32,000 nt of DNA from Nonlabens ponticola (GTDB lineage Bacteria; Bacteroidota; Bacteroidia; Flavobacteriales; Flavobacteriaceae): assembly GCF_003966335.1 (NCBI RefSeq), contig NZ_CP034549.1, positions 150,001-182,000 on the forward strand. Reading direction: 5' to 3'. The translations under genes were made by a program, and so were the position numbers. This document shows, piece after piece, positions 1,665-29,213 of the stretch. How positions within the stretch are numbered: the first letter of the stretch is position 1; the number at the start of each line of letters is the position of its first letter. The notes under the pieces were generated by a model. That model did no database searches, had not been told where the DNA came from, and saw only the letters and a list, made by a program, of their open reading frames with translations.

Positions 1665-1680
1665 CGCTTTCGCGAAAACC
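1665..1680. repeat. Palindrome family copy A (degenerate, 14/16: CGCTTTCGCGAAAACC)
   Basis: Intergenic, between convergent 3' ends (1605 and 1694). It is followed by TAATC, as in the extended consensus. Confidence 0.7.
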
Positions 1681-1693
1681 TAATCACCACCAT

Positions 1694-1978
1694 CTACAAA
1701 AAATGTAAATACAGCCAGTAGATCAAAAATCCTATAACCATAATAAGTGTCACTATCCTAACAAAGAGTAATCGTCGTTGACCAGATTTGATGACGAGCC
1801 TAATGCGCATCACGTCAATGAAAACTAGTATCAAGCCTAGAATTAGATAGATCCACTTTTGAGTTTGAAATTCCAGCGTGCCTTTGAAAAGAAAAAACAA
1901 TAAAATCAATAGCAGGATGACCATGGACGCGATGTTCCATTTATTGATTTTTGAGCTTGGATTAGGTTTTGACTCCAT
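1694..1978 (-). CDS. Hypothetical small membrane protein (94 aa)
   Basis: ORF with two or three long hydrophobic segments (MVILLLILLFFLF, IYLILGLILVFI, VTLIMVIGFLIYWLYL). No recognised family. Confidence 0.4.
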   Translation of the reverse strand: MESKPNPSSKINKWNIASMVILLLILLFFLFKGTLEFQTQKWIYLILGLILVFIDVMRIRLVIKSGQRRLLFVRIVTLIMVIGFLIYWLYLHFL

Positions 1979-2094
1979 AAATGATGGTGATGTTTTGTGG
2001 CTAATCTCGAGGATAAAGATTAGAGTTTCAAAAGTTCATGCGTTTATGCACAAGCTACTAGCATCTTTAGATCCGAGTATCAATCTAATGATAC

Positions 2095-2271
2095 TTAAGC
2101 CTCTTTGGAGTCACTCTGGACTTGAGGTTCCTTTTTGTATGCCACCCAACAAAATACAATCATTCCAACCACCATCGGAACGTATAGTTCAATTTCCAAA
2201 AATAAGTCGATCAAAATCGCAATGGACGTGAAGATGATGCTGGCTATTAATATGATTTTAAATAATTTCAT
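2095..2271 (-). CDS. Hypothetical small membrane protein (58 aa, below the ORF-track cutoff)
   Basis: Hand translation of the minus strand gives ATG(2271-2269) MKLFKIILIASIIFTSIAILIDLFLEIELYVPMVVGMIVFCWVAYKKEPQVQSDSKEA then TAA (2097-2095). It has two hydrophobic helices. It explains this stretch better than the 1878..2231 plus-strand ORF. Confidence 0.3.
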   Translation of the reverse strand: MKLFKIILIASIIFTSIAILIDLFLEIELYVPMVVGMIVFCWVAYKKEPQVQSDSKEA

Positions 2272-2342
2272 AGATAATGGTCGATTTTCTCAAGTATACA
2301 AAACGTGATATGCAATTCCTAATTTGATTCAGGATGTAATCT

Positions 2343-2350
2343 TACCTTTG
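2343..2350 (+). promoter_or_regulatory. Candidate Bacteroidota -7 promoter box (TACCTTTG) for rpe
   Basis: Exact match to TAnnTTTG, 16 nt upstream of the rpe ATG. A TTTG lies at 2323-2326, but its spacing is shorter than the usual ~19 bp. Confidence 0.3.
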
Positions 2351-2366
2351 CCAAAACCTCAACACC

Positions 2367-4564: not shown

Positions 4565-5299
4565 TTATCTAGCGGTGTAACCACCATCAATGATGTGGTA
4601 GGAACCAGTCACAAAACTGGCTTCTTCACTGGCCAACCAGTAAACGATGTTTGCTACCTCATCTGGTTTTCCCAATCTACCTATAGGATGTTGGGCAATC
4701 AATTGTTTTTCCTGTTCCTCATCAATTACATCTAGCAGTGGCGTCTCAATATATCCTGGACCTACGGCGTTAATGCGTACACCTTTTTCGGCATACTCAA
4801 TGGCGGCGGTTTTGGTCAAACCTACCACGGCATGTTTTGCCATGACATAGGCCACAGATTGTGGTGACCCTACGGATCCTAGCATACTCGCCATGTTGAC
4901 GATCGCGCCACCTGTTTTTAATAATTCTGGTATCTGCGCCTGGCAACCGTAAAAAACACCGTTTTGGTTCACTGCAATCACGTTGTTGTAGCTTTCCTCT
5001 GGATAGTCTGCCGTTAGTGCCATCTCACCACTTATCCCAGCATTATTTACGGCAGCGTGTAGCGCACCGTATTTATCTACAGTCTTCTGGACAAGCATTT
5101 CGTTTTCAGATTTTTTGGAAACATCTGCTTTAATAAAGTAGGCTGATCCACCTGCATCTTCTATTTCTTTGACAACGCTTTTTGCATCTTCTTCATCCAC
5201 ATCTGAAACGACGACATTATATCCTTCTTTTCCAAATCTATGGGCGATTGCTCTTCCCAATCCACTGGCGGCTCCTGTAACTATGACGGTCTTTTTCAT
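4565..5299 (-). CDS. SDR-family oxidoreductase (classical short-chain dehydrogenase)
   Basis: TGAASGLGRAIA cofactor motif, NNAGI, and the catalytic S...YxxxK (YVMAKHAV). 244 aa. Confidence 0.88.
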   Translation of the reverse strand: MKKTVIVTGAASGLGRAIAHRFGKEGYNVVVSDVDEEDAKSVVKEIEDAGGSAYFIKADVSKKSENEMLVQKTVDKYGALHAAVNNAGISGEMALTADYPEESYNNVIAVNQNGVFYGCQAQIPELLKTGGAIVNMASMLGSVGSPQSVAYVMAKHAVVGLTKTAAIEYAEKGVRINAVGPGYIETPLLDVIDEEQEKQLIAQHPIGRLGKPDEVANIVYWLASEEASFVTGSYHIIDGGYTAR

Positions 5300-5380: not shown

Positions 5381-5396
5381 CGCTTTCGCGAAAGCG
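5381..5396. repeat. Palindrome family copy B (perfect CGCTTTCGCGAAAGCG; extended GGATTACGC...GCGTAAC)
   Basis: Intergenic, downstream of the polyferredoxin gene stop (5450) and upstream of the SDR start (5299). Confidence 0.95.
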
Positions 5397-5449: not shown

Positions 5450-7093
5450 TTATGCAGACTTGTTGCTTTTCAACAACTCCATCAAGTCTGGATCTTGACC
5501 TAAAAGCACAGCCTCACTATTGATTCGACCTTCTAGCGGGCCGTTCTCCAATTTAAGAACGCCACGTGGACAAACCGCGCTACAAATACCGCAGCCTACA
5601 CAGCTGGCACGTATGATGTTTTCGCCCTTTTGAGCATAGCTGCGCACGTCAATTCCCATCTCACAGTAAGTAGAACAGTTACCACATGAAATACACTGAC
5701 CACCATTAGTCGTTATGCGAAATTTTGAAAACAAACGCTGCTGCAATCCCAAGATCGCCGCCATAGGACAACCAAAACGGCACCAAACGCGATTACCAAA
5801 AATGGGATAGAAACCAGTACCAATAACGCCAGAAAATATAGCACCAATCAAAAACCCATACAGACTCTTAACAGCAACATCCAGTGAGTAGATTTTCTCA
5901 TTAATACCGAATGAAAAGTAAGCAGCATTCACCTGTATCTGCGTGATGTCCACAAAGTAGATCAAAGCAACAGATGCTAATGATATAGCCAGATAAACCG
6001 TTGCACCAACAATCGCATCTTTCTTGAGCGTATCACGCTTCCAGATCATCACAGCTGCATACAAAACCACGAGAAGTGCCGCCACCGAAAACAAAAAGGT
6101 ATCTCTGGATAACCAGTAACCTTCGCCCTCATAACCTAGATAAACGCTTACCACAGTAGTCGTCATCATAACCACAAAAACGAGAACACTGTGTACTACC
6201 CAACGTTCTACTTTCCATGCAGCCTGTGACTTGTCAGACAATTGTCTAAAAGAATCTCCAGCAGTCTCGGCCAGGCCACCACAACCACAAACCCAACTAC
6301 AGTACCAGCGCTTACCATATTTGTATGTCAGTATAGGTGTGATGATAAAAATGGACGCTAGCCCAAAAAACAGCAAGAACATACCAATAGCACCAGAACT
6401 GATAAAGTCATTGATGCGGTATTGCTCAAAGTTGTAATAGTTGAGTGGCCAGATGTTTTTAAGATCGTAGTAAGGCAAGTTGAATCCGTCGCCGTTCAAT
6501 CGTGCCATAAATTCTGGAATCAAGAATGCAAAAGCCGTCTGAAAAAACATGACGCTGCTCGTGCGTATGATTTCATATCTATTGTGTCTATACTTCCAGA
6601 TAAATTTGACACCAAAAGCTAAAATAGCTACCGTATAGAGCGTACCATAAACAAACCATTGACTGGCAGGATTACCACTCAGCGCACGGCTCAAAGGATC
6701 AAATAGCGCCACCACACCAGTATTGGCACCATCTGGATTAAGGCCTAGCAATTCTGCATAGAAGTAGAGCACGATGTAAAATCCAGTAAGCGCAATTCCA
6801 GCCATCCAGCCTAAAACACCACGACTGGAAATAGACTTGAACCACACGCCGTCATTTTTAATTCCAGCCTGTTTGTGGGCATAACTAGCAATGGTAAAAC
6901 CTATAATCCCGACGCTCATTAGCACCAAAGATGCTGTGAGCCACAAAGCAGCATTAGTTATAGATTGATTGAAAAGATGCAAGACGAGGATACCTAATCC
7001 TGCCATACCAGCAAAAACCGATGCGCGTTGACCTGCATTAAGTGATTTTGGCGGCTCGCCAGTTAAGGACATACTTTTTTGAACAGTGGACAT
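5450..7093 (-). CDS. Polytopic membrane 4Fe-4S ferredoxin-type protein (NapH/polyferredoxin-like)
   Basis: Many hydrophobic helices, plus Cys clusters YCSWVCGCGG and VWCRFGCPMAA. Two classical ferredoxin motifs are present: CISCGNCSTYCE and CVGCGICSAVCP. Confidence 0.7.
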   Translation of the reverse strand: MSTVQKSMSLTGEPPKSLNAGQRASVFAGMAGLGILVLHLFNQSITNAALWLTASLVLMSVGIIGFTIASYAHKQAGIKNDGVWFKSISSRGVLGWMAGIALTGFYIVLYFYAELLGLNPDGANTGVVALFDPLSRALSGNPASQWFVYGTLYTVAILAFGVKFIWKYRHNRYEIIRTSSVMFFQTAFAFLIPEFMARLNGDGFNLPYYDLKNIWPLNYYNFEQYRINDFISSGAIGMFLLFFGLASIFIITPILTYKYGKRWYCSWVCGCGGLAETAGDSFRQLSDKSQAAWKVERWVVHSVLVFVVMMTTTVVSVYLGYEGEGYWLSRDTFLFSVAALLVVLYAAVMIWKRDTLKKDAIVGATVYLAISLASVALIYFVDITQIQVNAAYFSFGINEKIYSLDVAVKSLYGFLIGAIFSGVIGTGFYPIFGNRVWCRFGCPMAAILGLQQRLFSKFRITTNGGQCISCGNCSTYCEMGIDVRSYAQKGENIIRASCVGCGICSAVCPRGVLKLENGPLEGRINSEAVLLGQDPDLMELLKSNKSA

Positions 7094-8606: not shown

Positions 8607-9335
8607 ATGAAAATTCAATCCTATAAATTTTTACTTGTTGTAGTGTGGATTTTGGTGGGTTCCGCTTTCGCGAAAGCGCAATTATCAACCATCAACACTG
8701 CTACCAGAGAGCTATTTGCCAACCATGTTGCAGCTGGACAAGTGGACTATGCAGCCATCAAAAAAGATCCTACAAACCTAAATACCGCAATACAATCCAT
8801 TAAAAAGATTAACCTGAACTCTTTGACCGCAGCAGAACGTAAAGCCTTGCTGATCAATGCGTACAACTTATTTACCATCAAAGGCGTGGTAGACGCCTAC
8901 CCTATAAAATCGGTGATGGATGACGCATCATTTTTTGATGCTACCCGATATGAATTAGGCGGTGAAATGGTTTCTTTAAATCAGCTAGAGAAACAAATCT
9001 TATTCAAAGAATTTCCTGACCCACGATTGCATTTTGTTCTCGTTTGTGGTGCCGTAAGCTGTCCACCGCTTAACAACAAGCCTTTTACTGCAGAGAATAC
9101 AGAATTCATGCTCAAGAAACTCACGCGTGCCGCAATCAACAATCCGGCATTGGTAAAGATAGATATGCATGAAAAAGTAGCTTACGTTTCTAAGATTTTT
9201 GACTGGTATGCTGCAGACTTCACCAAAAAAGGGACTTTGATAGATTACCTCAACACCTATCGTGAGGACATGATACCAGATGGTTTCAGCGTCAAGTTTA
9301 TGAGTTATAATTGGTCGCTTAATGATGCAAAATAG
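8607..9335 (+). CDS. DUF547 domain-containing secreted protein
   Basis: Signal peptide ending AFA|KA. LINAYNLFTIKGVV and RLHFVLVCGAVSCPPL fit the DUF547 signature. Confidence 0.75.
   Translation: MKIQSYKFLLVVVWILVGSAFAKAQLSTINTATRELFANHVAAGQVDYAAIKKDPTNLNTAIQSIKKINLNSLTAAERKALLINAYNLFTIKGVVDAYPIKSVMDDASFFDATRYELGGEMVSLNQLEKQILFKEFPDPRLHFVLVCGAVSCPPLNNKPFTAENTEFMLKKLTRAAINNPALVKIDMHEKVAYVSKIFDWYAADFTKKGTLIDYLNTYREDMIPDGFSVKFMSYNWSLNDAK
8663..8678. repeat. Palindrome family copy C (perfect), inside a CDS
   Basis: Lies in the signal peptide of the DUF547 gene and is read as S-AFAKA-Q. Confidence 0.95.
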
Positions 9336-10377
9336 TATACTTACCTTATTTCAAGCGCTGCCTAGCTTTAGAAGAATTGCTGTGTGGATTACAGCGATAG
9401 CAATGGCAACCTTGACTATTTCCTGTACTGCCCAAACTCCAGAAAGTATAGACGGGATTTCGTTTGTCGCAACTAGAAATCCTATCGATCAAACTGATGT
9501 GCAGCCGCTGTTGGACTATAATGCCGATTATGCCGCAGTGATCCCTTATGGTTTTATGCGTGATCTATCAAGTCCAGAAGTGATCTACAACACTGATAGA
9601 CAATGGTGGGGCGAGACTAAAGAAGGTGTAGAAAAAACGATAGAACTGTTTCACACAGATGGGCTCAAAGTCATGCTCAAACCACAAATCTGGATCTGGC
9701 GTGGCGAGTATACAGGTAATATCCAGCTAGAAAATGCGCAGCAATGGAAACAGCTGGAAGACAGTTACAGTCAATATATTCTCGATTATGCGCAAGTGGC
9801 CCAAGACCAAAATGTAGAAATGTTATGCATCGCTACGGAGCTGGACAGCTTTGTTGACCAACGTCGTGATTACTGGATGGAACTCATCAAAAAAATCAAG
9901 GCGATCTACCAGGGCAAAATTACCTATGCAGGAAATTGGGACAGCTATAAAAACGTGCACTTTTGGGATCAAATGGACTACATAGGTGTAGATGCTTATT
10001 TTCCTTTAAGCGATCAAAAAACGCCTGATAGCACTACCATTGCAAATAATTGGAAGAAATGGAAGCTGGAATTGAGCACGCTTTCGCGAAAGCATGACAA
10101 ACAAATTCTTTTTGCAGAATACGGTTACATAAGCGCCGATTATGCAGGCAAGGAACCATGGAAAAATGCCGATGAAACTCGTGAGGTCAATAACGATGCC
10201 CAACAAATATTGCTTCAAGGCATGTATGACAACGTGTGGAATGAGGACTGGTTTGCTGGCGGCTTTTTATGGAAACACCATGCAGAAGAAAGTCGACGTG
10301 GCTTTGCAAAACGATTTACACCACAAGGAAAACCAGCGGCACAAACTGTGGCTGAAGCCTACAAGAAATACGAGTAA
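9322..10377 (+). CDS. Putative glycoside hydrolase, clan GH-A-like TIM barrel, lipoprotein
   Basis: Lipobox-like LTISC. CIATELD and LFAEYGY resemble acid/base and nucleophile Glu motifs of (beta/alpha)8 glycosidases. The family assignment is not secure. It overlaps the upstream DUF547 gene by 14 nt. Confidence 0.45.
   Translation: MMQNSILTLFQALPSFRRIAVWITAIAMATLTISCTAQTPESIDGISFVATRNPIDQTDVQPLLDYNADYAAVIPYGFMRDLSSPEVIYNTDRQWWGETKEGVEKTIELFHTDGLKVMLKPQIWIWRGEYTGNIQLENAQQWKQLEDSYSQYILDYAQVAQDQNVEMLCIATELDSFVDQRRDYWMELIKKIKAIYQGKITYAGNWDSYKNVHFWDQMDYIGVDAYFPLSDQKTPDSTTIANNWKKWKLELSTLSRKHDKQILFAEYGYISADYAGKEPWKNADETREVNNDAQQILLQGMYDNVWNEDWFAGGFLWKHHAEESRRGFAKRFTPQGKPAAQTVAEAYKKYE
10079..10094. 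repeat. Palindrome family copy D (15/16), inside a CDS
   Basis: Lies in the glycoside hydrolase-like gene and is read as T-LSRK-H. Confidence 0.85.
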
Positions 10378-10383
10378 AAGATT

Positions 10384-12027
10384 ATGAGAATACTATATAT
10401 CATACTATGCGTAGCACTGGGCACTAACGCTGTAAGCGCACAGTTGCTTCAAAACAAAAAGCAATTTACCCGACAAGATTCTCTGCGTGGATCTATAACA
10501 CCAGAGCGTGCCTGGTGGGAAATCACTTATTATGATCTTGATGTGAAAGTGCAGCCTGATGATAAGTTCATATCGGGTTCCAACACTATTCATTATCGAG
10601 TGCTTGAACCTTATCAAACATTACAGGTAGATCTGCAAGAGCCACTTGAGATTCTCAAGGCTGTTCAAAATGGTCGCGAATTAGAAATTGAACATGATGG
10701 TAATGCGCATTTTGTAAAGCTGGAAGATGAGCAAAATGTAGGTGATATTAATAAGGTAGAAATCGTTTATGAAGGCAAGCCGCGCGAGGCACGCAATGCA
10801 CCGTGGGATGGCGGCTTTTCATGGAAAAAGGATGATCAAGGCAATCACTTCATTGCCACATCAAATCAAGGATTAGGCGCCAGCGTATGGTGGCCCAATA
10901 AAGATCACATGTATCAAGAAGTGGACAGTATGTCGATAAGCGTCAACGTGCCTAGTGAACTGATGAATGTGGGCAATGGAAGATTGAAAGGAGTTGAATT
11001 GAAAAATGATGGAACGACCACCTATCACTGGAAAGTTGAAAATCCCATCAACAATTATGGTGTGAACATCAATGTTGGGAATTATGTGAATTTCTCTGAG
11101 ACCTACGATGGTGAAAAAGGTGAGCTGTTCATGGACTATTATGTACTGGAAGAGAACCTCAAAAAAGCCAAAGAACAATTCAAAGACGCACCCAAGATGA
11201 TGGAGGCTTTTGAGCATTGGTTTGGACCGTATCCGTTTTATGAAGACAGTTTCAAGTTGGTTGAAGTTCCATACTTGGGCATGGAACATCAAAGTAGTGT
11301 TACCTATGGCAATCAGTATGTCAATGGTTATCTGGGCAACGATTTATCAGGTACTGGTTGGGGTTTAAAATTTGATTTTATCATCATTCATGAGTCTGGT
11401 CATGAGTGGTTTGCAAACAACATCACCTACAAGGACATTGCTGATATGTGGATTCACGAGAGTTTCACCGCTTATTCGGAAAATTTGTTTCTCGATTATC
11501 ACTATGGCAAGGAAGCAGCAGCAGAATATGTGATCGGCACTAGACGCGGTATTAGAAACGACAGGCCTATCATAGGCCAATATGATGTTAATCATGAGGG
11601 TTCTGGCGACATGTATTACAAGGGTGCCAACATGCTACACATGATACGCCAGCTTATCAATGACGATGAAAAATGGCGTCAAATCCTGCGAGGACTGAAC
11701 AAAGAATTTTACCATCAAACAGTCACCACAGAGCAAATCGAAAATTACATTGCAGCACAAAGCGGAATTGATCTAAGTAAAGTATTTGATCAGTATTTGA
11801 GAGATGTGCGTATTCCTGTATTAGAATTCAAAAAAACAAACGATCATATTGAATATCGTTGGACTGACGTCGTAAACGGTTTTGCTATGCCTGTTGAAAT
11901 CGAGTTGGATGGGAAATTAAGTTGGATTACACCAACCGAAGAATATCAGAAATTAGACCTGACCGATTTGACATCAGGAATTAAAATTGACAACGATTAT
12001 TACATAGAAGTAGCTTTTTTAAAGTAA
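10384..12027 (+). CDS. M1-family zinc metallopeptidase (aminopeptidase N-like)
   Basis: Signal peptide, a HESGHEWF (HExxH) motif and the downstream WIHESFTAY glutamate ligand. 547 aa. Confidence 0.88.
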   Translation: MRILYIILCVALGTNAVSAQLLQNKKQFTRQDSLRGSITPERAWWEITYYDLDVKVQPDDKFISGSNTIHYRVLEPYQTLQVDLQEPLEILKAVQNGRELEIEHDGNAHFVKLEDEQNVGDINKVEIVYEGKPREARNAPWDGGFSWKKDDQGNHFIATSNQGLGASVWWPNKDHMYQEVDSMSISVNVPSELMNVGNGRLKGVELKNDGTTTYHWKVENPINNYGVNINVGNYVNFSETYDGEKGELFMDYYVLEENLKKAKEQFKDAPKMMEAFEHWFGPYPFYEDSFKLVEVPYLGMEHQSSVTYGNQYVNGYLGNDLSGTGWGLKFDFIIIHESGHEWFANNITYKDIADMWIHESFTAYSENLFLDYHYGKEAAAEYVIGTRRGIRNDRPIIGQYDVNHEGSGDMYYKGANMLHMIRQLINDDEKWRQILRGLNKEFYHQTVTTEQIENYIAAQSGIDLSKVFDQYLRDVRIPVLEFKKTNDHIEYRWTDVVNGFAMPVEIELDGKLSWITPTEEYQKLDLTDLTSGIKIDNDYYIEVAFLK

Positions 12028-12909
12028 ATCAGCCAGACACTCTTCTACAGTCTTATAATTAAATTCGAATCTTGCATCTAACAAACGTTGTGGATAAACG
12101 TATCTGCTTTTAAGCAGAAGTTCAGTTTCTGTTCCAATGACAGCAGCACCTATTTCTAGCAGCCATTTGGGTTGGTCAATACGCAATGGAACTCTAAGCT
12201 TTTGGCTCAACACTTCCATGAAATTATCATTTCGCATCGGGTTTGGAGCAGTGATATTGATCGGACCATCCAAATCAGAATCAATGATGAACTTGACCGC
12301 TCGACAAAGATCCTGTATATGAATCCAACTGATAAATTGATTACCTCGACCTTGTTTACCGCCCATTCCTAATCTGGTTATCTTCTTGAGCATGGGAAAT
12401 GCACCACCATCATTTCCTAGAACTATAGATGTGCGCAATGCAATTTTACGCACGCCATCAAAAGACTTACTGAAAAACTCCTTTTCCCATGACTTAGCGA
12501 TTCCCATTGAGAAGTCGTCACCTATTATTCCGTTTGCTTCTGTATTTATTTGAGTTTCAGAATGTGCATAAATGGTTGCAGTACTCGCGTTGAGAAATAC
12601 TTTGGGTTTAGTCACAGCCTTTTCCAACGCTAAGTTTAATACTCTCGTACTATCAATTCTAGAGTTATAAATCGCTTTACGATTAGCGTCCGTATATCTA
12701 CAATCAACAGATTTTCCTGCTAGATTGATGAGTACATCTGTATCTTCTAAGTGTTTGACCCATTCACCTAAATCTTTTCCATTCCAATGAGTTGTATTTT
12801 GAATGCGCTTTCGCGAAAGCGTAATTACTAAAACACCTTGCTTTTCAAAATATTCTTTGAGGGCAATTCCTAAGAAACCTGTGCCGCCTGCGATAATAAC
12901 CTTTTTCAT
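12019..12909 (-). CDS. TIGR01777/YfcH-family NAD-dependent epimerase-like protein (DUF1731 C-terminus)
   Basis: MKKVIIAGGTGFLG Rossmann start. The ~296 aa length and the C-terminal SRYVYPQRLLDARFEFNY are typical of the family. An ATGA stop/start overlap links it to the upstream gene. Confidence 0.75.
   Translation of the reverse strand: MKKVIIAGGTGFLGIALKEYFEKQGVLVITLSRKRIQNTTHWNGKDLGEWVKHLEDTDVLINLAGKSVDCRYTDANRKAIYNSRIDSTRVLNLALEKAVTKPKVFLNASTATIYAHSETQINTEANGIIGDDFSMGIAKSWEKEFFSKSFDGVRKIALRTSIVLGNDGGAFPMLKKITRLGMGGKQGRGNQFISWIHIQDLCRAVKFIIDSDLDGPINITAPNPMRNDNFMEVLSQKLRVPLRIDQPKWLLEIGAAVIGTETELLLKSRYVYPQRLLDARFEFNYKTVEECLADLL
12806..12821. repeat. Palindrome family copy E (perfect), inside a CDS
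   Basis: Lies in the TIGR01777-like gene (minus strand) and is read as IT-LSRKR-IQ. Confidence 0.95.
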
Positions 12910-14026: not shown

Positions 14027-14040
14027 TTATTTTAGTTTTA

Positions 14041-14064
14041 AACTTTCAGTAATTACTGAAAGTT
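14041..14064. promoter_or_regulatory. Candidate operator AACTTTCA-N8-TGAAAGTT (core of a 28-bp perfect palindrome at 14039-14066)
   Basis: TAAACTTTCAGTAATTACTGAAAGTTTA reads identically on both strands. It lies between the regulator stop (14083) and the start of the small membrane protein genes (14026). The same half-sites and spacing recur at 14615-14638. Confidence 0.5.
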
Positions 14065-14667: not shown

Positions 14668-14675
14668 TAAGTTTG
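14668..14675 (+). promoter_or_regulatory. Candidate -7 promoter box (TAAGTTTG) for the HD-domain gene
   Basis: Exact TAnnTTTG match 32 nt upstream of the ATG at 14708. Its 3' end overlaps palindrome copy F (14674-14689). Confidence 0.3.
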
Positions 14676-14689
14676 CTTTCGCGAAAGCG
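14674..14689. repeat. Palindrome family copy F (15/16; followed by TAATCC)
   Basis: Lies in the divergent intergenic region between the GbsR-like gene and the HD gene. It abuts the candidate -7 box at 14668-14675. Confidence 0.85.
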
Positions 14690-16957: not shown

Positions 16958-16973
16958 CGCTTTCGCGAAAGCG
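16958..16973. repeat. Palindrome family copy G (perfect; TTACGC...GCGGAATCC)
   Basis: Lies 9 nt upstream of the DUF547 ATG (16948) and downstream of the PNP stop. Confidence 0.95.
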
Positions 16974-17056: not shown

Positions 17057-17875
17057 TTACAGTCGCTCGATCACGCCCTGGAATAGCTGGACCATTTTAG
17101 GCTCAGCTTTTCCTGCCACTTCTATAATTTCTGGCACATTTACAGGTGCGAGATCGTCTGGATCGCACTCATCTGTCAAAACGGAAACCGCGCTCACAGG
17201 TAAATTCAAATGGTTGGCAACGATAATTTCAGGCACGGTACTCATTCCTACCGCATCAGCACCCATGATTTTGAGCATGCGGTACTCGGCTCTGGTTTCT
17301 AGTTGCGGGCCAACGACGCTGGCGTACACACCTGTGTGTAAATTGATGCCGTGATCGCTCGCAACATCCTGTAAATGCTTGTTCATAGTCGCATCATAAG
17401 GCGCGCTCATATCTGTAAATCGCTCGCCAAAATCAGACACACCCTTAAAAGCCAGCGGGCTACCACCTTGCAAATTGATGTGATCGTCGATCAACATCAA
17501 ATCGCCTTTTTTCATATCTAGATTGATGGCACCAGCAGCATTTGAAACCAATAAATTATTGATTCCCAAACCATGCATGACACGTATAGGATATGTGATA
17601 TCGATAAAATCATAACCTTCATACAAGTGAAAACGACCTTGCATCACGACAACTTTTTTACCACCTAGATCGCCGTAAATCAGTTTACCAGTATGAAACT
17701 CTACCGTCGCAAGTGGGAACGATGGTATGTTATTGTAGTGTGCTACTTTCTGGTTCTCGATCTTGTCCACCAGCTGGCCTAGACCTGTACCTAGGACGAT
17801 ACCAACCTCTGGTGCATCAAAGCCTTGATCCTTTAAATAATCTATTGAGTTTTCTAGTTGTTTTCTACTTAGCAT
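17057..17875 (-). CDS. Purine-nucleoside phosphorylase (trimeric PNP family I, inosine/guanosine type)
   Basis: 272 aa. GIVLGTGLG, GRFHLYEGY, VSNAAGAIN, GPQLETRAEYRML and GADAVGMSTVPE are the canonical PNP-I motifs. Confidence 0.88.
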   Translation of the reverse strand: MLSRKQLENSIDYLKDQGFDAPEVGIVLGTGLGQLVDKIENQKVAHYNNIPSFPLATVEFHTGKLIYGDLGGKKVVVMQGRFHLYEGYDFIDITYPIRVMHGLGINNLLVSNAAGAINLDMKKGDLMLIDDHINLQGGSPLAFKGVSDFGERFTDMSAPYDATMNKHLQDVASDHGINLHTGVYASVVGPQLETRAEYRMLKIMGADAVGMSTVPEIIVANHLNLPVSAVSVLTDECDPDDLAPVNVPEIIEVAGKAEPKMVQLFQGVIERL

Positions 17876-19755: not shown

Positions 19756-20646
19756 ATGCTAGGCATCTCAAACAAAGCTAAACATTTCTTGTTCCTGACC
19801 TTGAAGATCGCGGTAATTCTGTTAATCGTGACATTCCTAGTTCTTAAATGGCAATCGCAACCGTTTTCATTCATTGATCTTAAAATCTATGCCTTGTCAT
19901 TACCCATTTATCTTTGGGTATTATTACCATTACTAAGCTTGTCAAGCTGGCTGGTAGAAAGTCTCAAATGGCAATTTCTTGTAAGAGATTTTAGAGAATT
20001 ACGCTTTCGCGAAAGCATCATCCAAAACCTCACATCGCAAGCAACAAGCTTTTTAACACCGCTGCGCGCTGGAGAATTTGCCACCAAACCTTTCTTTTTT
20101 CAAGCAGATTACCGCAGGAAAGTGCTGAGAGCCGTGTTTACAGGAAACGTATTGCAAATGGCGATCACGGTAATCCTAGGTGTACCAGCATTGATATTTT
20201 TACTTGATGTGCCGATGTTATGGATAAGTGTTTGTGCCGTTGTCGCCATCCTGCTGGTGTTGATAGAACAGCGATGGATGAATTTACTCAGGCTTACTAA
20301 TGTCGAGTTTGTAAGTATTGTGCTTCTTAGTTTAGGGCGATATCTGCTGTTTGCAAGCGTGTGGTTGATATTGATTTTAAACAGCGATATTTTCACAACC
20401 ATCATTAGCGTGATGGCAGCAATAAGTGCTATGTATCTCGTGGTGTCCATACTACCGGTATTGCAATGGATGGATATCATCGTGCGATTGGGTGCGGCGC
20501 AATTCTTTTTGTCCATGTTAGGTGTTGATAGTGCAGAAATTGTGTTGATGGTTTTTATCGTCTGGTTGACTAATACGCTGTTACCAACGGCAATTGGTTC
20601 TCTTATACTCATATCCTTGCGATCTCCTAAAAATCTACTTGCATGA
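19756..20646 (+). CDS. Polytopic membrane protein (flippase-like / lysyl-PG-synthase TM-region-like)
   Basis: 296 aa with about 8 hydrophobic helices. An ATGA overlap links it to the downstream GT2 gene. The family assignment comes mainly from context. Confidence 0.45.
   Translation: MLGISNKAKHFLFLTLKIAVILLIVTFLVLKWQSQPFSFIDLKIYALSLPIYLWVLLPLLSLSSWLVESLKWQFLVRDFRELRFRESIIQNLTSQATSFLTPLRAGEFATKPFFFQADYRRKVLRAVFTGNVLQMAITVILGVPALIFLLDVPMLWISVCAVVAILLVLIEQRWMNLLRLTNVEFVSIVLLSLGRYLLFASVWLILILNSDIFTTIISVMAAISAMYLVVSILPVLQWMDIIVRLGAAQFFLSMLGVDSAEIVLMVFIVWLTNTLLPTAIGSLILISLRSPKNLLA
20002..20017. repeat. Palindrome family copy H (15/16), inside a CDS
   Basis: Lies in the flippase-like membrane protein gene and is read as EL-RFRES-II. 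Confidence 0.85.
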
Positions 20647-24049: not shown

Positions 24050-24859
24050 TTATTGTAGTAAGTTGTCCTCAAGCCATAGTGCGACTCCATCTTTCTTGTG
24101 ATGTAAAGTGACATCGTTTGCAACCGCCTTGACCTCTGGTCGTGCATTCTCAACAGCGACGCCATATCCAGCGTCACGCAACATCTCAATATCATTGTAG
24201 TTATCACCAAATGCGGCCACCTCTCTAATACTTATCCGTTTGAAGTTAGTACTTAGCAGCAGTTGTAGCGCACTACTTTTTGATATTCCTGCTGGTGAGA
24301 TTTCGGTATAAGTATCTTTTGAGCGGTATAAATGTAGTTTTTTGGACAGTGCTTTGTTGGCTTTCGCGAAAGCGGAATCCATATCATCCTTATCGCCCAT
24401 GTACATAATCTTGTGGGCGCCGCCTGCTCCCTGAGTACGCTCTAATTGAGCAAGGGTCATAGCGAGATCCTGCACAATAGGTTGCACGCGTGTGTTGTTG
24501 ATCTCGCGCGCCGTCCATTTGTCCACCTGCGTTACAAACCACTCGTCATCGCGGTAGATGCTCACATGTAAATTGTGCGCTACGCCTATTTGTGCCACTT
24601 CCTTGATAATTGCAAACGGTATGGTTAGACTATAAAGTTCATGACCTTGATGCTTTATAAGTGCGCCGTTGTAACAAATGATGGGCGCACCAGAACGACC
24701 CAAAGCGTCTTGCAAATAATACATGGCACTGGGCATGCGTGCAGAAATTAATATCACGGGAATCTCTAGCTGACTAAATATCGACCTTGTTTTCTGGGAA
24801 ATGAAGCGATTATCGTCAAGCAGCGTGCCGTCAATATCTGTAGCAATAAGTTTAACCAT
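24050..24859 (-). CDS. Cof-type HAD-IIB family hydrolase (sugar phosphatase-like)
   Basis: LIATDIDGTLL (DxDGT motif I), ISARMP, and AFGDNYNDIEML (motif IV). 269 aa. Confidence 0.82.
   Translation of the reverse strand: MVKLIATDIDGTLLDDNRFISQKTRSIFSQLEIPVILISARMPSAMYYLQDALGRSGAPIICYNGALIKHQGHELYSLTIPFAIIKEVAQIGVAHNLHVSIYRDDEWFVTQVDKWTAREINNTRVQPIVQDLAMTLAQLERTQGAGGAHKIMYMGDKDDMDSAFAKANKALSKKLHLYRSKDTYTEISPAGISKSSALQLLLSTNFKRISIREVAAFGDNYNDIEMLRDAGYGVAVENARPEVKAVANDVTLHHKKDGVALWLEDNLLQ
24359..24374. repeat. Palindrome family copy I (15/16; followed by GAATCC), inside a CDS
   Basis: Lies in the Cof-type HAD gene (minus strand) and is read as DS-AFAKA-NK. Confidence 0.85.
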
Positions 24860-25089: not shown

Positions 25090-25163
25090 GGTCTGGTAGT
25101 TCAGCTGGTTAGAATGTCGCCCTGTCACGGCGAAGGTCGCGGGTTCGAATCCCGTCCAGACCG
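25090..25163 (+). tRNA. tRNA-Asp (anticodon GTC)
   Basis: Hand-folded cloverleaf. Acceptor stem GGTCTGG/CCAGACC, D stem GTTC/GAAT, anticodon stem TCGCC/GGCGA with loop CTGTCAC, T stem GCGGG/CCCGT with loop TTCGAAT, discriminator G. CCA is not encoded. Confidence 0.92.
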
Positions 25164-25203: not shown

Positions 25204-25290
25204 TGTCCTCTAAAACAATTGAGGATTTGAAGGCGTCGATAAGATGCTTTTTGAGAAGCTTTTCCGAATAGGAGAGGCTTTTTTGTTTTT
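25204..25290 (+). ncRNA. Candidate small RNA / repeat unit 1 (41-nt conserved core plus terminator-like hairpin)
   Basis: The core TGTCCTCTAAAACAATTGAGGATTTGAAGGCGTCGATAAGA (25204-25244) recurs at 25360-25400 with one mismatch. The unit ends in a hairpin plus T-run. Confidence 0.35.
25258..25290 (+). terminator. Rho-independent terminator-like hairpin closing repeat unit 1
   Basis: GCTTTTCC-GAATA-GGAGAGGC (8-bp stem including two G-U pairs) is followed by TTTTTTGTTTTT. Confidence 0.45.
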
Positions 25291-25359: not shown

Positions 25360-25445
25360 TGTCCTCTAATACAATTGAGGATTTGAAGGCGTCGATAAGA
25401 GGCTCTTTGATCCTGAAGTTTGAGAAATTAAGGAGAAACTTTTTT
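25360..25445 (+). ncRNA. Candidate small RNA / repeat unit 2
   Basis: The core at 25360-25400 matches unit 1 at 40 of 41 positions. The downstream part is degenerately similar and ends in the AAGTTT...AAACTT stem followed by a T-run (25416-25445). Confidence 0.3.
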
Positions 25446-25544: not shown

Positions 25545-26132
25545 ATGAGCCAGCTTGAAGTACCCATCACTGATGTTGAGACGTTTATCTATTGTCTTGA
25601 GGTGGTTCCCGATGTTGATGTTGTTCAAACTACTGAGGTTACTTCAATTCTTGAAGATATTGCGCGCAATCAACACATCACGAGTATTTATAAAGCTTGC
25701 GACACCATTGAAGGACTTGAAGAAGCTATCAATCAGCTTATTTATGATGACCATCATTTCAAGGATTATGAGATAATATACTTGGTCTTACCAGGCGATG
25801 CCAATAACATTCTTATCAACGGCTACTATTACAGCATTGAAGAAATTGCAGAATTGTTTGAAGGCAAACTGGACGGCAAGATTCTCCATTTTGCTAATAA
25901 AAAGGTACTTGATCTGACTGATGAGGAATCACAGTATTTTATGGATATCACAGGTGCTAGAGCGGTTTCTGGATACGGCTTCAAATCAGATAATTTGACA
26001 AGCGCGTTTACAATTGATCGAGTGTTTTTTAGCCTGTTTTATGAGGACGATGACATCAAAGCTGTAGTAGAACGCATGTTTAGGAAGCATTACAAATTGT
26101 GTACGTTGCTGGATTTTAGATTGTATTATTGA
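25545..26132 (+). CDS. Hypothetical acidic cytoplasmic protein (195 aa), no recognised domain
   Basis: Clean ATG-initiated ORF with no signal peptide or transmembrane segment and rich in D/E. I cannot assign a family from the sequence. Confidence 0.5.
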   Translation: MSQLEVPITDVETFIYCLEVVPDVDVVQTTEVTSILEDIARNQHITSIYKACDTIEGLEEAINQLIYDDHHFKDYEIIYLVLPGDANNILINGYYYSIEEIAELFEGKLDGKILHFANKKVLDLTDEESQYFMDITGARAVSGYGFKSDNLTSAFTIDRVFFSLFYEDDDIKAVVERMFRKHYKLCTLLDFRLYY

Positions 26133-26145
26133 TTCTGGTGGGTTA

Positions 26146-26161
26146 CGCTTTCGCGAAAGCG
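26146..26161. repeat. Palindrome family copy J (perfect; GTTACGC...GCGGAATT)
   Basis: Lies between the convergent stops of the 195-aa ORF (26132) and blh (26178). Confidence 0.95.
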
Positions 26162-26177
26162 GAATTATCGACTCATT

Positions 26178-27101
26178 TTAAACAGGTGGTCGCTCCCAAT
26201 GATTATCTGGATTTTGATTTCGCTGCCATGCGAAGAGCAAAACGTGAGGAATGGTAGTTGCGGCGCTAAGTATGATTACTAGTGATAGCTGGGTAATAGT
26301 ATCGCCCATAAGCAGGTAGAGCATCACGATACCAGCGATCGACACTAGGTAAAATGGCAAGGCTTTTTTTATGTAAGTCATAAAACCCTCCAATCGCTTC
26401 AATTTTAAATCGTCTAGTTGACTTATAATACTAGGAACACTGTGCCAGAATACAAAGTAAAAAGCAAACCCTTGAAGCAAATCAAAGACCGTAAAAAATA
26501 GATACAGCACTAACAGACTGAGCTGCAATATCAAGAATTGATACACCTTGATACGCCTTAAAATCATGTTCCCGAAGGAAACGATCGCCTGAATTACCAG
26601 AAAAGGGATTAGTGCTAGATAGTTCCATTCAATTAGAGTTGGGTCAAATATGGTAGTAGATAAAACTTGCTGTAGCTCTTGTATATTAGCTATGAATAAA
26701 ATCGCAAAAACAGAAAGCCCATAGAAAAACGCCAGTAGGTTACCTGACCATCCTTTTACTGGCATCCAGTGATGCAAATGCTCCTCGCCAAAATGATAAG
26801 CGCTTACCAAAACAAAAACATTGAGTGCCACCCATGGTAATCCCCAAAAAAGTAATGCAATTGCTGCACCTGCAGCGATGTAAATAGAAATAAAGCTGAC
26901 TAATTTTATTTGGAACTTCCCAGCAGATCGCAGAATGAAATAATCATTTGCGCCGTGAATCAAACCTAATGTAGCGACTAATATCATCAAAAAAATGGAG
27001 AGAAACCGGTCATTAACAAGGCCGACTCTACCAATAAAAAAGCCACCTAGAGTGATGGCTATTAATGTGATATATAAAATAAGAGGCTTAGTCTTTAACA
27101 T
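26178..27101 (-). CDS. blh: Brp/Blh-family beta-carotene 15,15'-dioxygenase (retinal synthesis)
   Basis: Polytopic membrane protein with the conserved His motifs HGANDY, AYHFGEEH and FVFWHSVPS. I prefer the ATG at 27101 (MLKTKPLILY...), which still overlaps the upstream gene by 14 nt. The ORF-track start at 27137 is also possible. Confidence 0.85.
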   Translation of the reverse strand: MLKTKPLILYITLIAITLGGFFIGRVGLVNDRFLSIFLMILVATLGLIHGANDYFILRSAGKFQIKLVSFISIYIAAGAAIALLFWGLPWVALNVFVLVSAYHFGEEHLHHWMPVKGWSGNLLAFFYGLSVFAILFIANIQELQQVLSTTIFDPTLIEWNYLALIPFLVIQAIVSFGNMILRRIKVYQFLILQLSLLVLYLFFTVFDLLQGFAFYFVFWHSVPSIISQLDDLKLKRLEGFMTYIKKALPFYLVSIAGIVMLYLLMGDTITQLSLVIILSAATTIPHVLLFAWQRNQNPDNHWERPPV

Positions 27102-28266
27102 CTTCAAAAATAGGAAAAGGCAAGTCAGTGATATCAATGTCTTCTTGATGTAACCTCAATAATGATTTGCGTAATGACTTGACGAGAATAGGATCTTCTT
27201 TCATATAGTTCCACATCTCAACATAACAATAGCGCACTAGATCGACGGTTTTGAGCCATTTGACATAGACGTAATGTTCTCCATCTTCTGAATAGCAATT
27301 GTGATCTGGTATTCTTGATCTCAGGATAAATAGCTGTGTGAGGTAGTCAATGGCACCTAGCGCCGTTCCTGGATCATTGATCGCTGGACTACTTGCTTTT
27401 ACGGCCACTTCTACCAGGTGTTTTATCTCAGTCTCATGCATTTCAAGCGGTACGCGCATACTTACATTGACCTGTTTCCTGATGTTGCTCCACAATTTTT
27501 CGATATCACCATCAGTGCGCAGTAGCACGTCCTCTTGCAAGACAAACATACCTGGTTGCGGTTCAATCCATACGTGACATTTATTCTTTTTAGCGATTTT
27601 TCCTAACGCGTCTAGGTCAGGTATTTGAAAATATCCGCAGTCATCGCTTTTTTTGACATTCCAGCTATTCAAATCTTCTGGTCTGCCTTTACTTTCAGAG
27701 ATTTCTGCACGCTTGTGCATGCCTTCAATGCCTTTACTGGATTTAGTAAAACTCTTTTTCAGGATATAATTAATGTGAATAGACTGCGATACACTGTGTA
27801 TAAAGTAGATAAAAAGTAAAATACAAATGATGCTAAAAACAATACCTATGGTAGCGCCTAGCGGTGGCCGTCTAGATATTTCCTCACTGGCAGCTGGTAT
27901 TGATAAAACCATTGCATAAATGATCGTACCGCAATTAAAACCTAGTGTTAATTGATGGTGTTTCTCTGATAGGATAAGCGGTATCAATCTAGGTGAGAAG
28001 TTATTGATGCTACGATCCATCACATTCATTACCATCGTATAACTAAATATGGTCAGCGTGAAGATCCCACCAATAATAAACATGAGAACAAACTGAATGT
28101 TCTCACGATCCTGAATCATAAGATTCTTGAGGAAATGCGGTAAGTTTTCTGCCTCGTATGGCAAAAAAATTAACACCACGGCAAAGACCAAAAAAGATAG
28201 CGCTATTCCCGCAGGGACTAGCGCTACACTATCATATACTCTTCTTATAAGTGTGAGCAGCTTCAC
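27088..28266 (-). CDS. DUF2254-family membrane protein of unknown function
   Basis: About four N-terminal hydrophobic helices, NFSPRLIPL after helix 2, and a ~220-aa soluble C-terminal part carrying the SSPAINDPGTALGAIDYL signature that I associate with DUF2254 (PF10011). The GTG start shares its G with the rhodopsin TAG stop. Confidence 0.7.
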   Translation of the reverse strand: MKLLTLIRRVYDSVALVPAGIALSFLVFAVVLIFLPYEAENLPHFLKNLMIQDRENIQFVLMFIIGGIFTLTIFSYTMVMNVMDRSINNFSPRLIPLILSEKHHQLTLGFNCGTIIYAMVLSIPAASEEISRRPPLGATIGIVFSIICILLFIYFIHSVSQSIHINYILKKSFTKSSKGIEGMHKRAEISESKGRPEDLNSWNVKKSDDCGYFQIPDLDALGKIAKKNKCHVWIEPQPGMFVLQEDVLLRTDGDIEKLWSNIRKQVNVSMRVPLEMHETEIKHLVEVAVKASSPAINDPGTALGAIDYLTQLFILRSRIPDHNCYSEDGEHYVYVKWLKTVDLVRYCYVEMWNYMKEDPILVKSLRKSLLRLHQEDIDITDLPFPIFEDVKD

Positions 28267-29087
28267 TATGCTACCGCACTCTTATCCATACCTATTTTAT
28301 CAAGTGCTTGTTGCGCTGGTACATATCCAGCAGCGGCAGATTGTTTGATGGCAATGTAGGTAATCATGATACCGTAAATCACTTTACTTGATATATCAGC
28401 CACCGTAAATAATCCTTGTCTCAATACTACACCATCAGCGCTAGGCATAAATTGCGGTACTAGATAAGCTATAGGATATAGTGTCCATGCAAACATCATT
28501 AACCAGAAAACCTTGGTAATAGTAGATTGGGTACCACCAGTCATGGTAGACTTGTTTCTAAAGATTCTTACACCTACAATCCAGTTCATCACTACAAAGA
28601 ATGCTGTACTAATCGCTCCCCAAACCATGAGTTGTGATAGATCATCTACTTCATACAATTGTCCAATATAACCTGTAACGATCATACCCCATGCAGAGAT
28701 GATTAACCAGGTCGCTGTTGAAAATATTGATTTACCCTTCAAGTTCAAGACGATCAATAATTGTACAAGCAAACATGGAATGGTAGCCATCCAGTTCACA
28801 TAACGGTAACCGTTAGAGAATGTTAGATCTTGCAGAGTGTACACCTCACCATTAAATCTAAAGGCGTCAGTCCACATTGCAGCTTGTGAAAACAGGATCA
28901 TACCTGCCGACAACATTACAATACAAGACAATGCTGTTGCAACTCTATATTTAGGAGCTACAAAACGGGACACCACAATAAAGAATACTAATGCAGCAAA
29001 GTGCACACCTACGCCCATGGTAAGCATGTGATCGATAGCTTCAAATTGACCTACCGTGTAATCGTATAAATTTTCAATGTTTCTCAT
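28266..29087 (-). CDS. Microbial rhodopsin with the NTQ motif (light-driven inward chloride pump class, ClR)
   Basis: Seven hydrophobic helices. Helix C, RYVNWMATIPCLLVQ, aligns to bacteriorhodopsin RYADWLFTTPLLLLD, giving N98/T102/Q109 at the D85/T89/D96 positions. The Schiff-base lysine is in DISSKVIYG (K235). The sequence is very close to what I recall of Nonlabens marinus NM-R3. Confidence 0.92.
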   Translation of the reverse strand: MRNIENLYDYTVGQFEAIDHMLTMGVGVHFAALVFFIVVSRFVAPKYRVATALSCIVMLSAGMILFSQAAMWTDAFRFNGEVYTLQDLTFSNGYRYVNWMATIPCLLVQLLIVLNLKGKSIFSTATWLIISAWGMIVTGYIGQLYEVDDLSQLMVWGAISTAFFVVMNWIVGVRIFRNKSTMTGGTQSTITKVFWLMMFAWTLYPIAYLVPQFMPSADGVVLRQGLFTVADISSKVIYGIMITYIAIKQSAAAGYVPAQQALDKIGMDKSAVA

Positions 29088-29107
29088 TTCTTAGTCAGTT
29101 TAGATGT

Positions 29108-29115
29108 CAAACATA
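29108..29115 (-). promoter_or_regulatory. Candidate -7 promoter box (TATGTTTG on the minus strand) for the rhodopsin operon
   Basis: Exact TAnnTTTG match 20 nt upstream of the rhodopsin ATG. No convincing -33 TTTG is present. Confidence 0.3.
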
Positions 29116-29197
29116 GCTTTATGGTCGAGCGATGAATGTGAAAGCTTTAAGAATTTAAAAAATATTAACCTTTTTCCTACAATATGAATTTGGATTA

Positions 29198-29213
29198 CGC
29201 TTTCGCGAAAGCG
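29198..29213. repeat. Palindrome family copy K (perfect; GGATTACGC...GCGGAAT)
   Basis: Lies in the divergent intergenic region between the rhodopsin operon (start 29087) and the LuxR-type regulator gene (start 29374). Confidence 0.95.

Follow-up and report, generated by a model that had tools for sequence, protein, structure and literature searches.

An evenly spaced 16-base palindrome, hyper-abundant in Nonlabens, as a candidate genus-specific DNA word

The stretch considered here comprises 32,000 nt of the Nonlabens ponticola chromosome (NZ_CP034549.1, positions 150,001–182,000). It is referred to as the window, and its own coordinates are used throughout. The window encodes ordinary housekeeping functions, including ribulose-phosphate epimerase, PNP, RuvC, glycosyltransferases, an M1 peptidase, and a GH113 protein, as well as a PKD/CHU_C type IX secretion substrate. 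Dispersed between and within these genes is a 16-base palindrome, CGCTTTCGCGAAAGCG. A mismatch-tolerant search finds 11 copies, of which 6 are perfect, 4 match at 15 of 16 positions, and 1 matches at 14 of 16; they are the same 11 that were listed in an original prediction made for this DNA. All 11 contain the inner 10-mer TTTCGCGAAA without a mismatch. The original prediction took the copies for a genuine dispersed repeat family, and this is borne out: 100 dinucleotide-preserving shuffles of the window gave no match to the 16-mer, making the chance expectation zero, and the motif recurs in all 20 Nonlabens-type loci described below. The range of contexts it described holds as well. Clear coding sequence contains four copies (10079, 12806, 20002, and 24359), the coding part of a signal peptide contains one (8663), and the other six are intergenic, with co-directional, divergent, and convergent gaps all represented. 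The core does contain TCGCGA, the NruI site. The copies, listed without strand, and their settings, with the strand of each gene in parentheses, are as follows.

1665..1680, copy 1: 14/16, CGCTTTCGCGAAAACC; intergenic, 60 nt past the stop of the PKD/CHU_C secreted protein gene (148–1605, +)
5381..5396, copy 2: perfect; co-directional gap with flanks GGATTA and TAAC, 54 nt past the stop of a Fer4 membrane protein gene (5450–7093, −) and 82 nt ahead of the start of an SDR gene (4565–5299, −)
8663..8678, copy 3: perfect; in the signal-peptide coding part of a DUF547 gene (8607–9335, +), read in the frame S-A-F-A-K-A-Q
10079..10094, copy 4: 15/16; within the GH113 gene (9322–10377, +), frame T-L-S-R-K
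12806..12821, copy 5: perfect; within an epimerase/DUF1731 gene (12019–12909, −), frame T-L-S-R-K
14674..14689, copy 6: 15/16; divergent gap, 19 nt ahead of an HD-domain gene (14708–15361, +) and 67 nt from an open reading frame (14083–14607, −)
16958..16973, copy 7: perfect; 10 nt ahead of the ATG of a second DUF547 gene (16169–16948, −) and 84 nt past the stop of PNP (17057–17875, −)
20002..20017, copy 8: 15/16; within a membrane protein gene (19756–20646, +), frame R-F-R-E-S
24359..24374, copy 9: 15/16; within a Cof-type HAD hydrolase gene (24050–24859, −), frame A-F-A-K-A; kept in eight other species
26146..26161, copy 10: perfect; convergent gap between a DUF6642 gene (25545–26132, +) and a blh-like open reading frame (26178–27137, −)
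29198..29213, copy 11: perfect; divergent gap, 111 nt ahead of the start of a chloride-pump rhodopsin gene (28266–29087, −), with flanks GGATTA and GAATAA

The same palindrome is found throughout the sampled Nonlabens DNA. Loci were collected with PNP as the probe and one genome per species. The 20 best matches (80–86% identity), all from Nonlabens or close relatives, are taken as Nonlabens-type, with other Flavobacteriaceae genera at 72–77%. The comparison set comprises 59 syntenic PNP loci of other genera, 1.13 Mb in all (Croceivirga, Flagellimonas/Allomuricauda, Maribacter, Kordia, Ulvibacterium, Euzebyella, and others). Counts thus rest on approximately 1 Mb around chosen loci, not complete genomes, and the open reading frames (ORFs) of the fetched loci come from a simple ORF picker. 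All 20 Nonlabens-type loci carry the motif, with 2–8 copies each at two mismatches or fewer and approximately one copy per 3–3.5 kb. Within their 384 kb there are 111 copies, 66 of them perfect, 33 with one mismatch, and 12 with two. This is the count, with one or two mismatches allowed, that the original prediction proposed for related genera, and in the 59 loci of other genera it gives no perfect copy, no one-mismatch copy, and a single two-mismatch match; the 10-mer core is present in 0 of 59. Genus-limited is used here in that sense, i.e., absent from the 59 nearest non-Nonlabens PNP loci. These loci were also searched for any other hyper-abundant 11-mer, and none was found. Among the genomes sampled, it is therefore not merely the word but the phenomenon itself that is special to Nonlabens. 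An exact-match scan of metagenome contigs returned at least 120 stretches; among the matches listed, the low-GC marine ones (30–45% G+C) carry one copy per 3.3–3.7 kb.

Two lineages of Nonlabens represented by metagenome-assembled genomes stand out within the set. In L006 (1128, 8927) and L008 (10917), most copies have two mismatches, and the HAD and GT2 copies that are perfect in other species are decayed in L006. Maintenance of the motif may be relaxed in the L006 and L008 lineages, which would predict that a reader protein has been lost there.

The in-gene copies arose in place. Codon alignments of the GH113, GT2, DUF2064, DUF547, HAD, epimerase, and membrane protein genes show no change in length at the motif relative to outgroup orthologues. 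In GH113, Nonlabens has ACG CTT TCG CGA AAG (TLSRK) where approximately 45 outgroup orthologues of equal length have xLSEK, xLSNT, or xLAEQ. The DUF547 signal peptide that holds copy 3 reads SAFAKAQ in the window and in L011, SLMMSAQ in L001, and FGFGQ in the outgroups, again at equal length. In GT2, the motif is read as YAFAKAY or SAFAKAY in the clade of L001, L004, L005, L007, L014, L017, and L019 and is present in a decayed form in L006, while the remaining Nonlabens, the window included, have unrelated residues at that position. An apparent series is found in DUF2064, where the widespread NAFQEAF (AAT GCT TTT CAA GAA GCA) becomes YAFAKAM (TAC GCT TTC GCG AAA GCG) in L017, and L014 holds a two-mismatch intermediate form of the motif. 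Because the motif replaces a native stretch of equal length, the copies arose by base substitution and not by insertion. Where a copy is new, many substitutions are clustered within approximately 20 nt. In these alignments, amino acids are bent to fit the motif, as in xLSEK to TLSRK and NAFQEAF to YAFAKAM.

Once in place, the copies are held at the level of the DNA. In four genes compared between the window and other Nonlabens, codons for conserved amino acids are identical in 118 of 131 cases inside the motif (90%) and in 1565 of 3596 cases elsewhere (44%). The contrast has a Fisher P of 4e-28, a value that overstates independence given that the species are related. Copy 8 is a clear case, with CGC TTT CGC GAA AG identical in nine species (the window and eight others) although the proteins are only approximately 40% identical. 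There is also no tail of decaying copies. Three-mismatch forms number 1 observed against approximately 2.7 expected from the outgroup frequency, and the lack of an excess indicates that copies are either kept nearly intact or lost, without slow decay. The motif is kept by selection or drive on the DNA sequence itself.

The positions of the copies tell a more varied story. The original prediction posed conservation at orthologous positions in sister genomes and independent gain and loss as alternatives, and each applies to some of the copies: some are common to at least eight species, and others have been replaced by copies elsewhere. The copy in GH113 (10079) has orthologous copies in L001, L004, L005, L011, and L014, and the epimerase copy (12806) is kept in L001, L004, L005, and L014. 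A copy adjoining the HD gene is also found in L007, L011, and L017, apparently in the same gap as copy 6 (14674), although the gaps were not aligned. L002, L003, and L011 also have a copy at the position of copy 7 (16958), and the L001 clade has none there.

While positions turn over, spacing is kept. The membrane protein and epimerase genes both hold shared copies; in the interval between these, a single copy lies within GT2 in the L001 clade, and the window instead has two copies flanking GT2 (16958 and 14674). Inter-copy distances in the window range from 1.4 to 4.4 kb with a coefficient of variation (CV) of 0.34, compared with approximately 0.92 for random placement (P = 0.0004). A null weighted five-fold to intergenic DNA has a CV of 0.96, and the window P value becomes 0.0002. 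With the weighted null applied to nine lineages, Fisher's combined P is 2e-10, although shared orthologous copies mean that the lineages are not fully independent. In all 16 loci tested, the spacing CV is below the random mean. Divergence blocks among three close strains (L001, L004, and L005) were also compared with the motif as a guide to recombination boundaries, but they were noisy and no relation could be read.

Genes hold most copies, and intergenic DNA holds more than its share. In a pooled set of 1.06 Mb, 177 of 306 copies (58%) are inside ORFs and approximately 40% are intergenic. Density per kilobase is 1.08 in tandem, 0.71 in divergent, and 0.75 in convergent intergenic DNA and 0.19 in coding sequence, and intergenic DNA is 4–5 fold enriched in the motif. 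All three reading frames are used, with AFAKA in 89 cases, RFRES in 47, and LSRK in 41; the corresponding numbers for the PNP loci are 22, 19, and 18.

The extent of the conserved sequence is larger than the palindrome. Core positions 2–15, GCTTTCGCGAAAGC, are 95–100% invariant in 106 unique copies and then in 594 half-sites, with the outermost pair looser. The consensus of the 106 copies places the core between T-T-K-A-T-T-A and T-A-A-T-M-A-A and was confirmed with the half-sites. The inner flanks are TTA and TAA; each half is preceded by T-T-A/C, with a weaker preference for T or G farther out. The flank symmetry originally noted, GGATTA...(T/G)AATCC, is thus real as a consensus. On the 5' side of either strand, cytosine drops at positions −17 to −3 to 2–10% from a background of 15–18%, in coding and intergenic copies alike, giving shoulders of approximately 17 nt per side that are C-poor (T/G-rich) at 5' and G-poor at 3'. 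Because cytosine depletion reaches approximately 17 nt beyond the core on each side, the selected unit is taken as approximately 50 bp.

The symmetry is strict, but it is not the symmetry of a folded strand. In 268 of 271 cases, TTTC and GAAA are separated by two bases; apart from slightly mismatched full copies, no half-site stands free in the Nonlabens-type loci. Among 91 variant copies, 114 dyad pairs are altered, of which 7 are compensated and 107 are not. The bases that would form a loop are as invariant as those of the stem. Beyond the first pair, the flank arms of individual copies are no more complementary than column composition predicts. An extended hairpin is rejected on the absence of flank covariation past the first pair and on the uncompensated changes in the core. 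When folded as DNA, real copies reach only −5.9 to −8.4 kcal/mol with 6–9 pairs, compared with −11.3 kcal/mol for an ideal 28-mer. This pattern of conservation is what would be expected if a symmetric dimeric protein recognized the motif as duplex DNA, and it does not fit a hairpin or cruciform; the protein reader itself is inferred.

A resemblance of the TTTC...GAAA half-sites to parS and Noc sites was also considered. The register appears to differ, with a 4-bp centre in those sites and a 2-bp centre in the Nonlabens motif. Sites of the parS, Noc, or matS type are few and confined to one region, and the occurrence of the motif at approximately one per 3 kb in every contig sampled argues against such a role, as far as the sampled loci go.

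The motif extends into phages. An exact scan of IMG/VR gave 40 stretches with the motif, the low-GC contigs having 2–6 copies each. The identity of these contigs as phage is indicated by portal, protease, and capsid genes in L093, a baseplate hub gene in L116, and an integrase gene with a tape measure gene in L085. In L085, L093, L109, and L116, the host palindrome occurs approximately once per 4–6 kb, and by ORF coordinates some copies are apparently inside structural genes. Host-like copies in integrase-bearing phages fit a process that acts on DNA resident in, or recombining with, the chromosome. The whole genomes of two cultured Nonlabens phages, P12024S (L120) and P12024L (L121) at 35.7 kb each, have no copy even at three mismatches, which equals the chance expectation. 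These two phages also have CGCG at 9–10 occurrences where 35–44 are expected, and TCGCGA at 0 where base composition predicts approximately 3.5. The avoidance suggests a host (restriction) system acting on CGCG, the centre of the motif. In the host window, no avoidance of or bias toward CGCG is found outside the motif.

The observations above put the motif among the lineage-specific words that build up in place within genomes, represented by the uptake signal sequence (USS), the DNA uptake sequence (DUS), and the highly iterated palindrome HIP1, and it may be a "self" word of that kind. The likeliest mechanism is that a dimeric protein reads the motif as a word for uptake or self-recognition, a preference that is tentative and held at less than an even chance. 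An element of approximately 50 bp with dyad symmetry would be read as duplex DNA by a homodimer. When DNA is exchanged, this element would identify DNA belonging to the genus, as a signal for uptake or recombination. The molecular drive proposed for USS and DUS, in which homologous DNA is taken up and replaced with a bias, could then keep the word abundant. This reading was chosen because it matched the most independent features, namely the origin by substitution, the spread over frames, the ratio of coding to intergenic copies, the extended flanks, the genus limit, the even spacing, and the presence in temperate phages. It was also chosen because natural competence with a preference for own DNA exists in the same order, as in Riemerella columbina, for which no uptake motif has been identified (PMC7965970), and because methylated HIP1 is reported in a preprint to improve transformation in a cyanobacterium (10.1101/2024.09.10.611283). 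The likeness to HIP1 and to uptake signals that the original prediction saw is strengthened by the substitution in place, the three frames, the conservation at synonymous sites, and the even spacing.

Comparison with the established words shows how far the likeness goes. The USS of the Pasteurellaceae is also lineage specific, occurs at approximately one per 1–3 kb, has a conserved core with extended A/T-rich flanks, and is relatively evenly spaced (PMC1939737, PMC7811141). It too arises by point substitution and is found in all frames in genes, with approximately 60–65% of copies in ORFs and a relative enrichment in noncoding DNA. For Haemophilus influenzae, the reported share in ORFs is 65%, with noncoding DNA also enriched, and both USS and DUS are reported to evolve by substitution in existing sequence (PMC1939737). 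The Nonlabens motif shares with USS and DUS this substitution without insertion and a hyper-abundance in one lineage only, at 111 copies in 384 kb compared with none at one mismatch or fewer in the 1.13 Mb of other genera. Unlike the Nonlabens motif, a perfect 16-bp palindrome with symmetric shoulders, USS has an asymmetric 9-bp core with flanks on one side. USS falls off gradually with mismatches where the motif falls off sharply, and the phylum differs (the motif belongs to Bacteroidota).

The DUS of the Neisseriaceae is likewise a genus- or family-specific word that is highly conserved between species. Treangen et al. found that new DUS are often too different from the homologous sequence to result from single point mutations, that the distance between DUS corresponds to how large conversion tracts are, and that DUS are rare in recently acquired DNA (PMC2397512). 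Unlike the motif, DUS are 10–12 nt and nonpalindromic, with terminators formed only by pairs of them, 35% are in ORFs, and their receptor is known, the pilin ComP. HIP1 (GCGATCGC) is a hyper-abundant palindrome in cyanobacteria, conserved by selection in and between ORFs and nonrandomly spaced, with no evidence of a role in peptide, RNA, or gene regulation (PMC5861425), and like the motif it has a potential methylation site at its centre. Conservation at orthologous sites beyond the neutral level is common to both, as seen in Nonlabens in the 90% compared with 44% codon identity and in the copies common to at least eight species. The differences are that HIP1 is 8 bp, reaches more than one per gene, is phylum wide, and has a periodicity of 10–90 kb, while the motif is 16 bp with flanks, occurs at approximately one per three genes in one genus among those sampled, and has a regular spacing of approximately 3 kb. 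The two sequences are unrelated. The resemblance is one of kind and not of family, since neither the word GCGATCGC nor the cyanobacterial host is matched.

Several points weigh against an uptake or self-recognition word. Natural competence in Nonlabens is unreported in the literature found, and no experiment ties the motif to uptake. USS and DUS are nonpalindromic, and one analysis found their spacing less even than a structural element should show (PMC1939737). Over-representation of the motif ends abruptly at two mismatches, while for USS it tapers off as mismatches accumulate (PMC1939737). No protein was identified as a candidate receptor or binder, no whole-genome search for a receptor having been made, and the sample is the approximately 1 Mb around chosen loci described above. 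Finally, a perfect palindrome with strikingly regular spacing fits an architectural role inside the cell equally well.

That role is the main rival, and the perfect dyad, the ruler-like spacing, and the HIP1 precedent (PMC5861425) favor it. The motif would be a chromosome-architecture site bound by a genus-specific dimeric protein that acts in the nucleoid, in condensin loading, or in topology, with selection keeping a structural ruler of approximately 3 kb, as has been proposed for cyanobacterial HIP1. It is a serious candidate but, on the whole, an unlikely one. The perfect dyad, the fixed centre, and the absence of free half-sites are typical of dimer binding to duplex DNA, and the spacing is strongly under-dispersed in every lineage, preserved even as the copies turn over. 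Even spacing is a feature expected of compaction sites (PMC1939737), and HIP1, which is periodic and under selection, has been interpreted as related to nucleoid structure (PMC5861425). However, uptake-driven accumulation is also expected to yield relatively even spacing (PMC7811141), and because it is expected under both readings, spacing fails to separate them. No protein is known for such a role at the motif, known nucleoid proteins use degenerate sites, and the specific sites (parS, matS, Noc, and SlmA) are few and regional. Sister genera do without a comparable word, so a general architectural need is not evident.

Drive without function is improbable. A methyltransferase or repair system at CGCG or TCGCGA could bias repair or short-patch conversion, as may happen with HIP-type words, so that a word with no function of its own would build up in any DNA retained in the cell for long. 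The centre of the motif is the right sequence, the avoidance of CGCG and lack of TCGCGA in P12024S and P12024L suggest a host system at that site, and the word has been gained by the DNA of resident temperate phages but not by the two cultured ones. New copies also arise as the clusters of many substitutions that patch conversion predicts. HIP1 abundance is reported to track cognate methyltransferases (PMC4390886). Against this, a repair bias that specifies 16 bases and 17-nt shoulders is without precedent, and the host has no CGCG bias outside the motif. Neutral replenishment predicts neither even spacing nor orthologous copies conserved across species with saturated synonymous sites.

A signal like Chi, read by an enzyme of the AddAB/RecBCD type arriving from either direction, is a still fainter prospect. 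Chi is likewise an over-represented self-marking word that occurs once per few kilobases, arises in genes by substitution, and is lacking in some phages. It is also 5–8 nt long and asymmetric, its orientation follows replication, and it is read as single-stranded DNA, on one strand. RecA prefers GT-rich DNA, and the shoulders of the motif, G/T-rich and C-poor at 5' on both strands, could provide a 3' tail for RecA loading. The frequency of approximately one per 3 kb, the in-gene copies made by substitution, and the absence from the two cultured phages fit this proposal, and a preprint proposes that HIP1 may act partly like Chi (10.1101/2024.09.10.611283). However, a single-strand reader needs no full dyad, yet free half-sites are absent. 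The half-site is not enriched in other Flavobacteriaceae either, with 19 in 1.13 Mb compared with approximately 20 expected in a hand estimate from base composition. Chi proper is rejected on the full 16-bp dyad and the lack of free half-sites.

A hairpin acting in RNA, whether as a terminator, an attenuator, or an mRNA-stabilizing stem-loop of the sort that repetitive extragenic palindromic (REP) elements can form, is essentially excluded. A stem of 6 bp and a loop of 4 nt are possible in the core, the ideal 28-mer folds as DNA at the value given above, and a substantial minority of copies are intergenic. But no copy in the window overlaps any of its 31 terminator-like sites or has a T-tract, and the flanks, T-rich upstream and A-rich downstream, are the reverse of a terminator. 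These findings, with the similar density in divergent and convergent gaps, led to the rejection of an intrinsic terminator. A structured RNA element of any other sort is set aside on the 7 of 114 pairs compensated, the invariant centre, the flanks without covariation, and an Rfam scan of the whole window at gathering thresholds, which matched only tRNA and nothing at the copies. In L010, L012, and L016, a canonical intrinsic terminator, AAAAAGCGGAATCTTGTTTTCCGCTTTTTTG, is found approximately 100 nt past PNP, where other species have the palindrome or nothing. From this ordinary hairpin with its T-tract it follows that Nonlabens uses ordinary terminators. The operator of a transcription-factor regulon was also rejected, given that 58% of copies are coding and that the spacing is regular regardless of gene function across many housekeeping genes. 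The original view that the copies are neither terminators nor a single regulon therefore stands on the lack of overlap with terminator sites, the similar gap densities, and the share in coding sequence.

Spread by transposition, as a mobile family of the REP/RAYT, miniature inverted-repeat transposable element (MITE), or Rickettsia palindromic element (RPE)-like kind, is the least probable explanation and also essentially excluded: the motif is a dispersed, many-copy palindromic repeat with two copies 87% identical over 52 nt, but the in-gene copies bring no length change and use three frames, 58% are in genes, there are no terminal repeats, target duplications, or 5' GTAG, no likeness extends outside the approximately 50-bp consensus, and no tail of decayed copies is seen. 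MITE or RPE-like insertion of a unit that adds length is rejected because motif-bearing and motif-free orthologues are equal in length. Nor was there support for the possibility raised originally, that the copies belong to some longer mobile element, with no insertions or deletions at the in-gene copies. REP elements and bacterial interspersed mosaic elements resemble the motif as short, G+C-rich palindromes with hundreds of copies in an A+T-richer genome and with intergenic enrichment. They differ in being extragenic, imperfect, often paired, variable, and spread by a transposase, whereas the motif is 58% genic, insertion free, and nearly invariant. REP/RAYT membership is rejected on the 177 of 306 copies in ORFs and the absence of indels in genes, with no search for a RAYT gene made. 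The two similar stretches, 8638–8689 and 26121–26172, each around a copy of the motif, are more alike than expected from the flank consensus alone; the likeness could have arisen by chance in DNA of biased composition or be the trace of conversion from copy to copy.

Whichever reading proves correct, the kind of thing is known. The Nonlabens word differs from the known cases in its phylum and length, in being perfectly symmetric and regularly spaced, and in stopping sharply at the genus boundary. No earlier description of the word GCTTTCGCGAAAGC or TTTCGCGAAA was found in the literature, nor any relevant report of a palindrome, competence, or a repeat in Nonlabens. It is possible, though well short of assured, that Nonlabens has a new genome-wide system in which a genus-specific dimeric protein reads a 16-bp palindrome at ruler-like intervals of approximately 3 kb, even at a cost to protein sequence. 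If so, this would be either the first sequence-specific system for DNA uptake or self-recognition outside the Proteobacteria, with a symmetric signal, or a new chromosome-organizing site, and in either case the reader protein would be unrelated to the known USS and DUS receptors. To our knowledge, hyper-abundant self words come from few lineages only, with USS in Pasteurellaceae, DUS in Neisseriaceae, and HIP1 in cyanobacteria, and whether they originate by selection or drive is debated. A long, perfectly symmetric, and unusually evenly spaced word in Bacteroidota, in one culturable marine genus whose close relatives have no such word, should be a useful case for this debate. The contrast between genera makes the proposals testable through competence with a preference for own DNA, through a co-distributed gene, and through spacing compared with tract length or nucleoid structure. 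The word could also serve as a marker of Nonlabens DNA in metagenomes and as a candidate element for better genetic tools in marine flavobacteria. It might separate temperate from lytic Nonlabens phages and may help to assign temperate phages to Nonlabens hosts.

Other features of the window are of separate interest. The rhodopsin gene (28266–29087, −) matches the Nonlabens marinus ClR structures 5G28 and 5B2N at E = 1e-148. It belongs to a co-directional cluster (26178–29087, −) with a membrane ORF of 392 aa (27088–28266) and the blh-like ORF (26178–27137), and the motif is found at both borders of the cluster (26146 and 29198).

A different palindrome, AACTTTCAG-(6–8)-CTGAAAGTT, is present in two copies (14036–14069 and 14610–14643) that are 82% alike and flank a 174-aa ORF (14083–14607, −), which has no Pfam match at 1e-5. 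These palindromes resemble operators at which a DNA-binding protein would regulate its own gene. Just 3' of a tRNA gene (25090–25163), a 51-nt direct repeat (25204–25254 and 25360–25410) is 94% identical between its two copies, and a terminator-like hairpin of 13 pairs (25253–25283) overlaps the end of the first copy. The repeat could be a duplicated module of a small RNA or terminator, or the remnant of an integration site.

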